A DNA stretch of 64,000 nucleotides from contig OY970212.1 in NCBI GenBank assembly GCA_963713925.1, positions 96,001 to 160,000 on the forward strand. The letters run 5' to 3'. Both the position numbers and the translations under genes were made by a program. The notes under the pieces are model-generated. The model was not told the DNA's origin. It saw only the letters and a list, made by a program, of their open reading frames with translations, and ran no database searches. The DNA is from an uncultured bacterium. Its GTDB lineage: Bacteria; Babelota; Babeliae; Babelales; Vermiphilaceae. Positions within the stretch are counted from its first letter, which is position 1; every line of letters starts with the position of its first letter. This document shows, piece after piece, positions 661-51,371 of this stretch.

Positions 661-908
661 TCAAAGCTCCTTATAGAAAATAAATATATCAAAATCATGA
701 ATAAACCTTTATGTAGAGCATGAATAAATCATGCAAAAATGTCATGCGCCCTACTACGCTGAAGCTACGAAGGGTTTTACTCACCCTCCCACGATTCAAA
801 AAAGTGTGTAACTATCAGGCATCGTAGAATAAAAAATAAATGCAAATACCAAAACGATCGGCTTTTTTCATAGCAATGTGCACAACATAAGGCTATTACT
901 AAAATGAT

Positions 909-1802
909 CTAGTTCTGATTTTTATATAGCAACATCATCACAGGACTTGCAATATATATGGAAGAATATGTTCCGAAAATAATTCCCACTAAAAGAGCAA
1001 TGCAAGAATTACGAAGCGCTTCTCCACCTAAAAAGAGCAGTGGCAAAATAACAACTGCTGTTGAAACGCTGGTCAAAATAGTTCTTCGCAATGTTTGATT
1101 CAAACTTGTATTAACAATTTCTGTCAAAGATTTTCCTGACATACGCTTCAAATTGTCGCGAATTTGAGAAAATATAACAATGGTATCGTTAATGGAATAA
1201 CCTAAAATAGCCAATATCGCCATGATAACGGTCATTGAAATTTCAATTCCAAAGAACATAAATACAAAAAGCATTGCTATCGCATCATGCACCAAAGCAA
1301 CAACAGCTCCGGTTGCAAATGCAAACGACCAGAAGCGAACTGCTATGTAAATCAGCATGGCAATCAAAGAGATAACAATCGCCTTAATTGATTTATTACG
1401 AAGCTCAGCTCCGACGCCAGCTCCCACGGCTTCAACTTGTAAAATGGTCACTTTATTTTGCTCGCCGAATTTCTTTTGCATTACTTGCCGCATGTTTTCA
1501 GCAAGCCCTTGCGAATCATTTGAAAACTCTTTCACACGAACAAGCAAACGATTTTGATTATCGGCAAATGATCTAACTATTACCCCCGACCACCCTTCAG
1601 ATTCAAGCGCTGATTTTACTTGTTCAGCAGAAACAGGTGATTGTAATTCGATAAGGAACTGGGTTCCACCAGTAAACTCAACACTATAATTAAAAGGCGA
1701 CCCCGTGGTCATTAACCGATAGGTAAAAAGACCGATAAATGAGGCGACAAGTGAAATTGAAAAGATGGCACTGAGCCAGCGATATTTAAGAAAATTAATC
1801 AT
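909..1802 (-). CDS. secF: Protein translocase subunit SecF
   Basis: VEFTGGT, GYSINDTIVIF..IRDN and GTYSSIYIASP motifs. Start moved to MINFLKYR (ATG 1802, GGGAG RBS); the longer ORF-track start runs into repeats. Confidence 0.95.
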   Translation of the reverse strand: MINFLKYRWLSAIFSISLVASFIGLFTYRLMTTGSPFNYSVEFTGGTQFLIELQSPVSAEQVKSALESEGWSGVIVRSFADNQNRLLVRVKEFSNDSQGLAENMRQVMQKKFGEQNKVTILQVEAVGAGVGAELRNKSIKAIVISLIAMLIYIAVRFWSFAFATGAVVALVHDAIAMLFVFMFFGIEISMTVIMAILAILGYSINDTIVIFSQIRDNLKRMSGKSLTEIVNTSLNQTLRRTILTSVSTAVVILPLLFLGGEALRNSCIALLVGIIFGTYSSIYIASPVMMLLYKNQN

Positions 1803-2083
1803 GTATACTCCCCGGTGCCTTACGCTTCTATTGAAATAAGACACCATGATTTTTTTATTGCAGAATTCGCCTTCGCAAATCCTATTGCTTTCAAACTTTT
1901 GACATAGTATCAGAATTGAACCTGACCTTCGAAGCTTGGGCCTCAAATGCAAATTTGGGTAAAAGCTTATTGATACTATTTCGCTGCTCCGCAGCTTCGA
2001 AGTGCCTTGGTCTGCTTGTCCTACGAAGTTTTAACAAAGTAGGCCCCAAATGAAACTCATGCTGAATTTGGGTACAAGTAGGT

Positions 2084-2338
2084 TTATGCAGCAAGAACTG
2101 AAATGTAACGGCGTCCTTTTGGACCGTAGTGAAACTTGATCAAGCCTTCAGCTTGCGCAAAAAGTGTGTCATCACCACCGCGTCCAACACCTTTACCCGC
2201 ATGGAAGCGAGTGCCGCGTTGACGAACGATAATTTCACCGCCAGAAACATGTTGACCATCAAAAAGTTTGACGCCTAGTCGTTTACTTTTACTATCTCGA
2301 CCATTCGACGTACTACCACCGGATTTACTCGTTGCCAT
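2084..2338 (-). CDS. rpmA: 50S ribosomal protein L27
   Basis: [18 protein letters not shown]...IIVRQRGT...[10 protein letters not shown]. Confidence 0.98.
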
Positions 2339-2630
2339 CGTATTTCCCTTAGAAGATTATTTTTTATTAATTTAATTTTTTACAAAGTCTGTTGATGTTA
2401 TCAAAAAAGACATGAATTTTGTATCTGAATCAATGAGCTCCGGACAGACAATTTGATGCCCCAGATATTGACCAATACAGATTTCAGTATGGCCAAAGAG
2501 AGGAAAATGTCAATATAACAATGGTGTTTTTTGCCATATTTACAGAGACTATACCCATTATTTAACGGGGCCCCCAAATTTCATTTGGGGTGTCTTACTT
2601 CGTAGCATGAGCGACGGCTGGACTATTTTA

Positions 2631-49203: not shown

Positions 49204-49210
49204 GATAAGC

Positions 49211-50173
49211 ATGAAACACTCAAATAAAGTTGACGTACGATCTTTAGTTAAGAATATTTCGCAAGAATGTTCCAAGTTCTACTGGGACCCCATGGTATGT
49301 GAACAATACGCATGGTGGCTTATTGAAGCAGTTACTGGCAAATCTCGAACTAATTTATTAACAATAGGTTCAATCGACTTGTCGGACTCACAGTTGGAAA
49401 AGATTCATCTTTACATCGATGAGCTTATCAATCAAAAAAAACCCCTTGCCTACATTATTGGCTGGACTCCATTTCTGGATTTAAAAATCCAGGTCGTACC
49501 ACCATTGCTTATTCCGCGCCCGGAGACTGAAGAATGGGTTGCTCATCTTATTGAATTGTTGCGTCCTCATGCGCAGCTATCTCTTTCTATCCTTGATCTG
49601 TGCACCGGCACCGGCTGCATCGGGCTCGCAATAGCAAAAGCTTATCCTCGCATGAAAGTCACCGCCGTTGATATTAATCCGCTTGCTGTTGAAGTCGCAT
49701 CTGAGAATGCGCGCATGAATGAAATTGGTAACATTGAAATTGTGCACTCCGATCTATTTAACAATATCACAACCGAGACTTTTGATATTATTATTAGTAA
49801 CCCTCCCTATATTTCAGCCCAAGAATTTGAAACTCTTGATGAAAGCGTCAAATTGTGGGAAGACTATAAAGCGTTGGTTGCAGATGATCAGGGGCTCGCA
49901 CTTATAAAGCGCATAATAGAACAGGCGCCAAGATACCTGAGAAAAAACAAAGAACTTGCAGCTATTATACCCCATGCCGAAAGCACGGGGGCCCCGACCG
50001 TAGGCAATCTTTGGATAGAAATTGGACATCAACAAGCACAGGCTGTAATCGCATATATGAAGCAAAATAAGTATGCGAATGCGCACAGCTATACTGACAT
50101 GTCACATAAAGAGAGAGTTGTAATAGGAACCTATGAAGCGGGAAAATCAGCAATGCATCACACTCCTGATTAA
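49211..50173 (+). CDS. prmC: Release factor glutamine methyltransferase
   Basis: PLAYIIG, LIPRPETE, LDLCTGTGCI, SNPPY; contains an in-frame family C element at 49969-49995. Confidence 0.95.
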   Translation: MKHSNKVDVRSLVKNISQECSKFYWDPMVCEQYAWWLIEAVTGKSRTNLLTIGSIDLSDSQLEKIHLYIDELINQKKPLAYIIGWTPFLDLKIQVVPPLLIPRPETEEWVAHLIELLRPHAQLSLSILDLCTGTGCIGLAIAKAYPRMKVTAVDINPLAVEVASENARMNEIGNIEIVHSDLFNNITTETFDIIISNPPYISAQEFETLDESVKLWEDYKALVADDQGLALIKRIIEQAPRYLRKNKELAAIIPHAESTGAPTVGNLWIEIGHQQAQAVIAYMKQNKYANAHSYTDMSHKERVVIGTYEAGKSAMHHTPD

Positions 50174-50801
50174 ACAAAACAGCATTGTTTTGGCATGCGC
50201 AGAATTTGGCCAACAAACGATACTGACCGGGACGTTGCTCAAAGAACTCGCCCCGGCGCACACGTTTATTGACGGTCGAATATACAACTTCGGGCTCGCG
50301 CTTTCCACTCTTGAGACATATCTCCGACTCACACGCTACCACGGAGCGGTCATCGGCCTTATTTTTGATACGTCTCTTATTATCGATTCTTTTGCTTTGC
50401 CGCATAGCAATCTAGTGACCGGCAATGCTTTGAGTTCATATCACACTCGCACGCTGACATTCCAAAGATCTTCGCAAGATATGCCCGTAAACTACACCGC
50501 TGCAATTGGATGTGATCTTCTTTTGCAATATGAATTGTTATGCAGCGAGCTGGGATTGTCACTTGTTTTTGCAAGCACTCCGCTCCAGGCGTATGCGCGG
50601 ATGTATCGAGTGTTATACGGTGCTGCGTTTCGCCATTCATTGCTTCTTGATGCGGTTGAGCAACATGGCTCGAATATAGATCTGACCATCGATCAAACAC
50701 TTCTTTCGAGATTTATCAAACAACCGGCACATCAAGTGAATGCCCGTGACAATATGCTATGCATTGGCAGTTTTTACTGCATGAGAGATTTATTAGTATA
50801 A
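50133..50801 (+). CDS. Hypothetical protein
   Basis: 222-aa ORF overlapping the prmC end; no confident domain. Confidence 0.55.
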   Translation: MKRENQQCITLLIKQNSIVLACAEFGQQTILTGTLLKELAPAHTFIDGRIYNFGLALSTLETYLRLTRYHGAVIGLIFDTSLIIDSFALPHSNLVTGNALSSYHTRTLTFQRSSQDMPVNYTAAIGCDLLLQYELLCSELGLSLVFASTPLQAYARMYRVLYGAAFRHSLLLDAVEQHGSNIDLTIDQTLLSRFIKQPAHQVNARDNMLCIGSFYCMRDLLV

Positions 50802-50822
50802 GAAGCTTAAAAAGGAATTGTC

Positions 50823-51371
50823 ATGGAGAAGAATCAGATAAACTTTGCTCAATTTGAACGATATTCAGCTCTAACGCAACGAAAGAAAGATATGCGGCTT
50901 GTTGCCCTGCTGGCATTATGCATGGGGCTCGCGCAGGCTCTGGTCGTTGGTTATTGGTATTTTAATTCAGCACGTGGCACTGACCACGCGCAAATACCGC
51001 CTTTTTACCCCACGCTATCGCGCGGGGGCCCCGTGGTTTCATCCTCTGTTCAACAAGTTCACATCCAAGAATCGAGCTCTCAGCAGAATCTCCTTGAAGT
51101 CTTAGCTCCCTTTTTGAACGGAAACAAAAAGCTCAAGCTCTCTTCTTTACACAAACAAAAAATGTATCCGCACAGCATTGTTTTCAACGAGCAAGGCATG
51201 AGTCTCACTGTTGCAATTGCCAACACGCAGTCATTGCAAAAGAGCATCGATGTTCTTGAAAAAACCTTAGAGACCCCACTCGCGGTGCAATCAATTAAAG
51301 AGATCAACAATCAAAGGCTTGTTTGTCTGGCAACAGAGTTAGGCAAAAAATTGATCTCTAAGATAAATTGA
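50823..51371 (+). CDS. Hypothetical bitopic membrane protein
   Basis: Single N-terminal TM segment; contains an in-frame family C element at 51007-51032. Confidence 0.6.
   Translation: MEKNQINFAQFERYSALTQRKKDMRLVALLALCMGLAQALVVGYWYFNSARGTDHAQIPPFYPTLSRGGPVVSSSVQQVHIQESSSQQNLLEVLAPFLNGNKKLKLSSLHKQKMYPHSIVFNEQGMSLTVAIANTQSLQKSIDVLEKTLETPLAVQSIKEINNQRLVCLATELGKKLISKIN

Follow-up and report, generated by a model that had tools for sequence, protein, structure and literature searches.

Nested palindromic repeats in a Babelota genome: loop entry fits the D2 subfamily and is not supported as a general rule

Palindromic repeats do nest inside one another in the genome of this uncultured Babelota bacterium, and the single rule first put forward to explain it, an insertion machinery that targets extruded hairpin loops rather than a fixed sequence, is half right. 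The rule is supported for the D2 subfamily, of which 27 of 37 copies are nested, often at a fixed position in the loop; as a general rule it is not supported, given family C and the D1 subfamily. The window considered here is the whole stretch of 64,000 nucleotides (contig OY970212.1, positions 96,001 to 160,000), set against the genome and its relatives.

Four hairpin families, A, B, C and D, all with stems that covary, are present in the genome, as detected with regular-expression and stem scanners and Markov controls. Selecting C by its terminal motifs only gave 171 copies versus 5 in the Markov control, and inner stem positions 2-4 were paired in 150, 143 and 140 of the 171, versus 78, 85 and 104 after shuffling; for D, outer-stem pairs 1 and 2 form in 57 and 61 of 73 copies (31 and 41 when shuffled). 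With stem pairing above shuffled, both families are coherent, as the initial annotation had proposed, and all 24 positions that it named, 14 for C and 10 for D, hold an element. G-U type pairs are frequent in the stems, the 5' starts are GGGN for C, C[CT]TG for D2, CGTTCG for B and TGTC or CGTC for A, and GNA triplets are common to B, C and D. Inverted pairs are frequent for A and B; C and D2 are chiefly single hairpins. A search of the repeats in Rfam gave none at gathering scores and one chance match (E 0.49). Genome-wide, no replication-strand bias was found for A, B or D, and a weak one for C (108/185 leading, p 0.03). Note that the scanners are blind to degenerate and long-loop copies and to the real nestings at 24372, 47893 and 48702; the window elements below their thresholds are the degenerate C at 1938 and 8103, the D at 747, 2015 and 2594 and the long-loop D at 4265 and 9823. 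The elements of the window are as follows, those at 749 and 24372 having been read directly from the sequence and the latter having been missed by the parser.

749..774, minus strand: D-type hairpin without a clear 5' tag
1938..1960, plus strand: C variant within a degenerate D-like hairpin, flanked on either side by AAGCTT
2015..2073, plus strand: degenerate D (2015-2043), its 3' arm containing C (2042-2073) with a direct duplication of 7 nt
2567..2624, plus strand: C (2567-2591), then degenerate D, just beyond the polA stop codon
4263..4358, minus strand: long-loop D in frame in polA, 32 codons, 11-nt stretch duplicated on both sides
8103..8133, minus strand: degenerate C
8203..8820, plus strand: A-type cassette, A hairpins (8203-8228 on the minus strand, 8331-8356, 8795-8820) around a 103-aa GIY-YIG gene (8371-8682)
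9823..9886, plus strand: single D with a long two-hairpin loop
14776..14819, plus strand: empty B, 15-nt loop, reference state for filled B copies
18725..18791, plus strand: C whose loop holds D2 (18738-18771) from 2 nt in, without duplication
24372..24481, minus strand: C holding a D2-type element (24382-24469)
30131..30164, plus strand: C within an open 988-codon ORF, absent from the initial annotation
32572..32645, plus strand: B whose loop has D2 (32588-32617) placed in the GNA triplet
38883..38953, plus strand: terminator-like hairpin with 15-bp arms behind an M16 peptidase gene, C (38900-38931) in its loop
39868..39901, plus strand: C at the 5' end of an HhH-GPD ORF (true start codon not fixed)
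45562..45981, plus strand: B-type cassette, made of a B (45562-45638) with C (45584-45607) in its loop, a 94-aa GIY-YIG gene (45650-45934) and an inverted B (45938-45981, minus strand)
47854..47881, minus strand: simple C, in tandem behind the 47893 composite
47893..47983, minus strand: C holding D2 (47903-47966), itself with D2 (47917-47948) in its apical loop
48659..48759, no single strand: C (48659-48691, minus) abutting a tagless D (48692-48759, plus) that holds D2 (48702-48735, plus; junction GA^A)
49969..49995, minus strand: in-frame C that adds 10 codons to a methyltransferase gene
51007..51032, minus strand: C inside the open ORF 50823-51371

Six of the seven nestings originally named in the window hold. 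Sequence reading confirmed D in C at 18725, D in B at 32572, C in B at 45562, D in D in C at 47893 (all layers on one strand, both junctions in loops) and C in the terminator-like hairpin at 38883-38953. At 24372, described as D in D in C, all three layers exist; the innermost, however, is a long-loop D (24408-24457, plus) on the opposite strand, placed within the middle D's 5' arm and with 3 nt (GCC) duplicated at its junction. The supposed D in D at 9823 is one long-loop D, its inner part being without a D tag; a D with a similar two-hairpin loop was found upstream of a nuclease gene at another locus (L021). Three further nestings had been overlooked: at 2015 a C in the 3' arm of the D, at 1938 a C within a degenerate D, and at 48702 a D2 within a tagless D. 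The polA insert is missing in all 16 orthologs aligned (19 tried) and the methyltransferase C in 5/5, and a paralog of the B-type cassette, at C1:353922, has an empty upstream B.

Genome-wide, 66 of 340 C and D copies are nested, this count being taken after 11 doubtful host calls had been removed by eye. Of the intergenic copies, 64/294 (21.8%) are nested versus 9.0% expected (p 4e-11), and a within-spacer null gives 44.6 nestings against the 64 observed (p 6e-4); nesting is thus more frequent than expected by chance. The nested copy lies on the strand of its host in 64/66 events, an orientation that a symmetric extruded cruciform would not yield, and 9 of the 66 junctions fall in arms, not loops. 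These counts are inflated because composites are copied whole, some of them within an IS110-derived MITE, so that many nestings are inherited and not new insertions; the 66 events reduce to 34 clusters, of which 32 are same-strand (p 7e-8). Among five B composites every combination of the shared inserts is present, and one composite is repeated at 9 loci in genome G093.

The loop-targeting reading is supported for D2. In C hosts, 9/16 D2 junctions lie 1-3 nt into the loop versus 4.3 expected (p 0.006), eight of them exactly 2 nt in, after four different dinucleotides, and nested insertion leaves no target duplication. In relatives, 3/10 complete D2 copies sit in loops of other hairpin families, A-type and D loops included; D2-in-C composites, sought with a narrow pattern, were found in 0/79 family genomes, where D2 and C rarely co-occur. 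The triplet YGN precedes 15/27 nested and 4/10 other D2 junctions and so does not tell them apart. The D1 subfamily occupies tRNA 3' ends (15/38 tRNAs).

Family C follows no general loop rule: 179 of 258 copies are alone, the joined flanks of these form a hairpin in 18/179 versus 12-15% in two nulls, and C is found in loops, stems and plain A-rich DNA. Its insertions leave 3-8-nt direct duplications, often ending in a GG common to C's own 5' end; duplications of at least 6 nt occur in 36/216 cases versus 7.2 (at most 14 in 200 permutations), and a CG base pair precedes the duplicated stretch in 9/37 cases only. An inverted target duplication was rejected as a general feature of C. In 13 cases C comes after a B stem of its own strand, and in none before one, and the arrangement recurs in genomes G133 and G160; at the C-in-B junctions a fold-back copy of the host loop may account for about 9/13 by eye, but C also has a variable T-rich leader. 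About 28 C matches lie within called genes (14 sense, 14 antisense), and intergenic C is sense to the flanking gene in 94/141 cases (p 9e-5), concentrated ~15-25 nt before start codons. Copy number is patchy among relatives (28/201 genomes), and C is found in the loops of other repeats across several phyla, its flanks there forming a helix of at least 7 bp in 13/63 cases versus 4.2 (at most 9).

For each of A, B and D there is a separate clade of GIY-YIG genes (80-115 aa) that the hairpins flank; two such genes are in the window, and a D-clade candidate lies in the C1:1102706 region. Over the 29 small GIY-YIG proteins assessed, D-clade genes have D flanks in 7/8, a tRNA upstream in 6/8 and A or B flanks in 0/8; A or CGTC flanks are found for 3/3 of the A clade, and B-like flanks for 15/18 of the B clade with a pattern widened after the loci had been seen, D elements lying near 3/18 of these. 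The pairing of D with its clade spans six families of the order. The proteins match only PF01541 in Pfam and nothing in NCBIfam; the B protein is closest to UPF0213 proteins, and of the clades, A is the likeliest candidate for membership of CDD cd10448, judging by its CGTC-type flanks. Of the cognate nucleases to be sought for C and D, a candidate was found for D; no C-flanked gene was found in this genome or beside 97 C loci elsewhere, and these loci have no neighbouring gene in common except at one phage capsid locus. Genome G205, with 18 C pattern matches, has one weak GIY-YIG match only (4e-9). A GIY-YIG gene at locus L035 with an inverted C pair outside is not taken to be C's enzyme, since B-like repeats separate the two.

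Three intact IS110 copies with identical proteins are present. A and D elements lie inside the IS110 left end and in 14 derived MITEs, 140-268 nt long with IS110 ends, which carry A doublets with D and C cargo; C and D2 do not share their ends with the autonomous IS110. Empty and filled MITE paralogs are exact, with a spacer of 34-35 nt in 10 copies, a further 53 nt of D in 4, a further 32 nt of D in a D arm in one, and a further 41 nt of C with an 8-nt duplication. The genome (95.75% complete) holds no intact Y1 (RAYT) gene, only a 74-aa fragment that no C or D was seen to adjoin; reverse transcriptase PF00078 gave 0 matches at E<=1 and TnpB none above cut-off. In public run X1 the organism is at low cover, too patchy for the lack of joints inside any element to carry weight, and it was not found in runs X2 and X3. 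For dating the insertions, no congener was found and a metagenome scan with one hypothetical protein gave no match; members of genus g10 are 70-77% identical to each other.

We propose, with about an even chance of being right, that C, D2 and the like are non-autonomous ssDNA-hairpin replicons that share one genome and multiply by nick-primed copy-in. Small nucleases would nick a single strand at hairpins or next to them, in many cases at the GNA triplets of B, C and D, by analogy with SsnA; the 3' end at the nick would prime copying of a donor hairpin by a host polymerase, and the strand would rejoin via short microhomology. C, with no enzyme of its own in view, appears to exploit nicks at the hairpins of other families, its A-rich 3' tail pairing perhaps with a T-rich primer end and its GG/CC 5' tag serving to rejoin. 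Composites would spread by host copying, by the IS110 MITE and by recombination between copies. Cargo would build up in loops for two reasons, D2 being directed to them and the enzymes recognising the arms whatever the loop contains. An element that has been filled continues to be copied in its entirety. Note that D2 leaves no duplication and C does, so one chemistry may not cover both, and that cutting and mobility by the candidate GIY-YIG enzymes are putative. A bolder version is possible, though we hold it tentatively: several unrelated clades of tiny GIY-YIG nucleases would each drive their own hairpin in a community of minimal DNA replicons, one homing to tRNA CCA ends, and C would be an enzyme-less, cross-phylum hyperparasite, entering the nicks of others by DNA-templated target-primed copying, with A-tail priming, GG microhomology and variable duplication resembling TPRT without RNA or transposase.

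The copy-in scheme has to be weighed against other accounts. Random insertion without targeting, whereby neutral loop inserts survive with their host recognisable and founder composites multiply by copying and gene conversion, is unlikely. It would fit the collapse of the events into 34 clusters, the five B composites and the nine-locus composite, the within-spacer null accounts for 44.6 of the 64 nestings and the parser sees surviving hosts only; against it stand the 32/34 independent same-strand clusters, the 13:0 placement of C after B stems with its recurrence in two other genomes, and D2 lying exactly 2 nt into unrelated loops in 8/16 C hosts. A single machinery inserting C and D into any extruded loop, whatever its sequence, is improbable, and for C in this genome it is already contradicted. 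The loop position of D2, its occurrence in A-type and D loops of relatives, the C in the terminator-like loop at 38883 and the helix-forming C flanks elsewhere speak for it, but lone C flanks (18/179) do no better than the nulls, inverted flank complementarity is not enriched for C here, D1 sits at tRNA ends, 9/66 insertions are in arms, and the same strand is used in 64/66 events although a cruciform bares loops on both.

We also doubt that a transposase moves D2, C or both, be it the resident IS110 recombinase, with guide RNA and structure choosing the target, or a lost Y1/RAYT. The three IS110 copies, A and D in their left end and MITEs, D2 insertion without duplication and Y1-like ORFs at 2/97 C loci (motif read by eye) would agree with it, and IS110 elements are reported to occur in REPs (PMC8450116) and to be able to read a target stem-loop (10.64898/2026.03.19.712850). 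However, by eye the D2 and C ends are unlike IS110 terminal repeats, D pairs with a GIY-YIG clade in six families, and C's variable duplications are unlike clean recombinase or Y1 junctions as generally known. Very improbable is the reading that the host keeps the hairpins as RNA elements acting in mRNA stability, termination or translation control, with nesting a repair by-product at structured transcribed DNA: sense C before starts (94/141) and frequent G-U type pairs point that way, but genic C is evenly sense and antisense, C is patchy in relatives, Rfam gave no match, and target duplications and nuclease cassettes indicate mobility.

Palindromic repeats of 30-50 nt (NTS/dRS3, RPE and relatives) multiply in the absence of a transposase by means not yet established. 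Rickettsia palindromic elements (RPE) are palindromic repeats translated in frame in conserved genes of a small-genome bacterium. The in-frame repeats in polA (32 codons) and the methyltransferase gene (10 codons) resemble them by description, and the sequences appear to differ. Yeast mitochondrial GC clusters (PMC4478555) are likewise GC-rich palindromes of 30-45 nt. Their stems are constrained and their loops variable, they show target duplication and merging of units, and a nuclease helper is proposed for them and unproven; being organellar with a fixed AG target, they offer an analogy only. GTAG/CGTC REPs (Di Nocera et al, 2013, PMC3733652) share tagged palindromes and dimers; repair genes, that of DNA polymerase I among them, contain in-frame copies, and a few families are inserted within other palindromes (T. 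roseum GTAG-23, A. variabilis GTAG-15, H. neapolitanus CGTC-1). GIY-YIG proteins do not come up in that paper. Here only A has a TGTC/CGTC-type start, B, C and D carrying other tags, and three-layer nesting extends over four families with a strand rule. REPIN/RAYT systems (Bertels & Rainey, 2011, PMC3116915) also comprise non-autonomous hairpins beside a cognate nuclease gene, tandem arrays and REPs targeted by other elements, whereas here there is no intact Y1, the C/D2 unit is probably a single hairpin and not a doublet, and C has duplications.

A close parallel is with Ssn and its NTS/dRS3/SRM repeats (Chenal et al, 2025, PMC11893778), which share ~95-aa single-domain GIY-YIG genes, flanking oriented 25-50-nt hairpins, dozens of solo copies, a tag outside the stem, a variable loop and strand-specific action; a small GIY-YIG gene flanked by its repeat is found here for A, B and D, not for C. 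SsnA of Neisseria cuts one strand beside its hairpin and tolerates loop extensions, its mobilising of the repeat is given as a hypothesis only, and the words 'nested' and 'tRNA' are absent from the main text (PMC11893778). No published description of C, D2 or the B and D nuclease clades was found in the open literature, though the Ssn supplements may list motifs. The published SRM pattern matches 0/43 A, 0/64 B, 0/221 C and 0/72 D, with 3 matches genome-wide, two further GIY-YIG clades are the partners of B and D, and the D cassette lies at tRNA 3' ends. In this genome empty and filled paralogs can be compared to the exact nucleotide, junctions are mapped, nesting follows a strand rule and three enzyme-hairpin pairs are candidates, so that cut sites can be predicted and checked on oligonucleotides. 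With the B and D clades, site-specific ssDNA nucleases would reach past the published motif, and in C a widespread repeat would rely on the enzymes of other repeats.

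The window spans C1:96001-160000. The genome (G000) consists of one contig (C1) of 1.32 Mb, with a G+C content of 40.7% and a completeness of 95.75%; its closest comparison genomes belong to the same family only (polA identity 57-66%). Using a scanner with iterative excision, we catalogued 258, 84, 83 and 45 copies of the small hairpin-forming repeat families C, B, D and A, respectively, versus 10, 0, 1 and 2 in first-round Markov controls, and an element was present at all 24 positions listed in the initial annotation. The families are coherent, as that annotation held, because the stems covary in copies picked by terminal motifs alone: pair 2 of the C stem is formed in 150 of 171 copies versus 78, and pair 1 of the D stem in 57 of 73 versus 31. 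B, C and D have in common stems broken by GNA triplets, and 75 of 127 long C loops begin with GNA. At window 25808-25900, a long-loop D variant comes after a short GGGTCCCC hairpin, and this module is present again near C1:401300 and 961980. Separately, one low-depth contig of the public run X1 skips 75 nt at window 34796-34872, where no repeat element lies and adapter-like loose ends occur close by.

Nesting is real and well beyond chance. After removal by eye of 11 doubtful host calls, 66 of 340 C and D copies lie inside another element's hairpin; of these, 57 occupy loops and 9 occupy arms. The initial annotation's proposal that nesting exceeds random placement is upheld in intergenic DNA, where 64 of 294 copies are nested (21.8%) versus the 9.0% that element cover and the false-call rate of 9/400 together predict (p = 4e-11), and versus 44.6 copies when each is shuffled inside its own spacer (p = 6e-4). 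Among B elements with both arms, 28 of 92 hold a 43-173-nt loop, with ~2 insertions expected. Nested copies share the host's orientation in 64 of 66 cases; similarity clustering reduces these to 34 groups, of which 32 are same-strand (p = 7e-8). Six of the seven nestings initially described stand. The exception, at 9823, is one long-loop D, and in the composite at 24372 the innermost D, in reversed orientation, occupies the arm of the middle D. The cumulative GC-skew minimum, a putative origin, falls at window 24416 on this three-layer composite (24372-24481) and may merely mirror its composition.

Composites, i.e. hairpins with their inserts, move whole. In G093, another genome, one composite is repeated at 9 of 10 loci fetched. 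Three shared inserts, a, b and c, are distributed over five B composites as a, ac, ab, abc and bc, a pattern that requires recombination, loss or repeated insertion. Three IS110 copies with identical proteins (C1:678965, 1121469 and 1276715; L252-L254) carry an A doublet in the left non-coding end, with D inside two of them, and 14 short MITE-like derivatives (140-268 nt) have terminal repeats in common with them. Over these 17 carriers, the A-doublet spacers form an exact empty/filled series: ten are empty (34-35 nt), four hold a 53-nt D, one has an additional 32-nt D within the arm of the first D, and two measure 128 nt with C, one with an 8-nt duplication.

The D family comprises two subfamilies. 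D1 adjoins the 3' end of 15 of the 38 tRNAs, always in a single orientation and with the CCA end within its stem (e.g. the tRNA genes at C1:434336, 476134 and 1103083, with ~5 further degenerate cases by eye); after several of these copies comes a conserved ~50-nt spacer that resembles the D nuclease cassette at its upstream end. D2, defined by the start C[CT]TG and the end GGCGGA or GTAGAA, gives 37 matches versus 1 in the control, with 3' ends wrongly assigned in three. Inspection by eye places 27 of the 37 inside other elements, with C as the host for 17, D for 7 and B for 3; another 8 are free, and 2 are ambiguous. D2 inserts without duplication. Where the host is C, nine of the 16 junctions fall 1-3 nt into the loop versus 4.3 expected (p = 0.006), eight of them exactly 2 nt in, after AG, GG, GT or GA. 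In relatives, D2 occurs at 16 loci, contributed by 10 of the 79 genomes of the family; among the ten loci with both ends, three lie in other hairpins' loops, one being an A-type apex. A D in polA, accompanied by the duplication of an 11-nt stretch, adds 32 codons missing from all 16 aligned orthologs (19 tried).

C follows a different insertion rule from D2. Its 258 copies divide into 179 standalone, 47 nested, 16 tandem, 13 adjoining a B end and 3 touching D. Thus the initial inference that C and D both target extruded hairpin loops holds for D2, with its predominant nesting and early fixed loop position, and fails for C in this genome, most of which stands alone. The joined flanks of standalone C fold into a hairpin in 18 of 179 cases, versus 111/895 and 119/800 in two nulls. 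Direct duplications of at least 6 nt flank 36 of 216 copies versus 7.2 expected (maximum 14 in 200 permutations); they often run from the A-rich tail to a GG that C's 5' tag also has, and 9 of 37 come from tandem arrays. Such arrays have 3-6 copies, the unit being C plus the duplicated target stretch (L067, L072, L075, L076; C1:405561, 510957, 1156000). C lies downstream of a B stem on the same strand in 13 cases (14 pattern matches, one without a C hairpin) and never before one, an arrangement also found in the genomes G133 and G160. About 28 matches fall within called genes, 14 per sense; the one at window 49969 adds 10 codons missing from 5/5 orthologs. Intergenic C is mostly in the next gene's sense (94/141), clustered ~15-25 nt upstream of start codons genome-wide (e.g. 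window 18791 and 47854).

The C pattern occurs in 28 of 201 genomes of the order and in at least 123 stretches of GTDB genomes (Clostridia, WOR-3, Nitrospirota, Dehalococcoidales, Acidobacteria, TM6 and others), often inside other palindromic repeats; there, the flanks form a helix of at least 7 bp at 13 of 63 distinct sites versus 4.2 (maximum 9 in 60 swaps). Sixteen viral contigs and two thermophile genomes (L133, L144, L231-L246) have a single C between two adjacent conserved genes, for a putative ClpP-like protease and a putative major capsid protein.

Four small GIY-YIG nuclease genes were found in the genome, plus one match within a 417-aa frame. Two lie between inverted B, one of them (window 45650-45934) directly behind the C-in-B case; that at window 8371-8682 has A on both sides; the fourth has D on both sides and adjoins tRNA-Thr. 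A tree of these four and 25 genes from the order (those passing a motif filter among the best 30 loci) gives three clades, with a long-branch warning between the D and A clades. D-clade genes have D flanks in 7 of 8 cases and a tRNA upstream in 6 of 8, A-clade genes A/CGTC flanks in 3/3, and B-clade genes B-like flanks in 15 of 18 (D too in 3), the B-like pattern having been broadened after the loci were inspected. L030 and L038 come from two further families of the order and have D inside the B-like flanks of their GIY-YIG genes. Of the cognate nucleases that the initial annotation proposed to look for, a candidate was recovered for D; no C-flanked nuclease was found in this genome, at small GIY-YIG loci of the order or among neighbors of C loci elsewhere. 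Of other enzymes, the genome holds a Y1 fragment only and neither a reverse transcriptase nor TnpB. A second stretch matching the 3' end of the A-type gene lies immediately upstream of the cassette (window 8203-8260), and the gene's own 3' end continues into a damaged A hairpin (window 8660-8700), a sign that a previous copy may have occupied this site.

The pairing of families with nuclease clades, the strand rule, the junction types and the copying of units are direct observations. We give roughly even chances to a scheme of nick-primed copying, in which a nick in one strand, at a hairpin or next to it, would, by analogy with the Neisseria nuclease SsnA, prime polymerase copying of a donor hairpin, the copy being resolved via microhomology; D2 would be directed to the loop start, and C would exploit nicks at other hairpins and at A-rich sites. 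Excerpts of PMC11893778 report that SsnA measurably makes such a nick and tolerates loop extensions.

Survival plus copying alone, an unlikely explanation, has on its side a parser that detects only hosts surviving insertion, which favors loops (it also missed real cases in the window), and must face the strand rule. Movement by IS110 or a lost Y1 enzyme seems rather improbable; the IS110 copies and their derivatives together carry elements of three families. Universal loop targeting, which D2 fits and C does not, is more doubtful still, and a host RNA function is very improbable.

Searches of openly available literature found neither C nor D2 described, nor the nuclease clades of B and D; related reports are PMC3337134, PMC4478555, 10.64898/2026.03.19.712850, PMC8450116 and PMC12288879. 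REPs within other palindromes are known from Di Nocera et al (PMC3733652), and REPs serve as IS targets (PMC3116915). The main value here is less the nesting as such than its exact junctions, its strand rule and enzyme pairs that can be tested. The hairpins work like Ssn/NTS and REP mosaics, a likeness in working that does not imply membership, the published SRM repeat motif of Ssn being matched by 0 of 400 copies.
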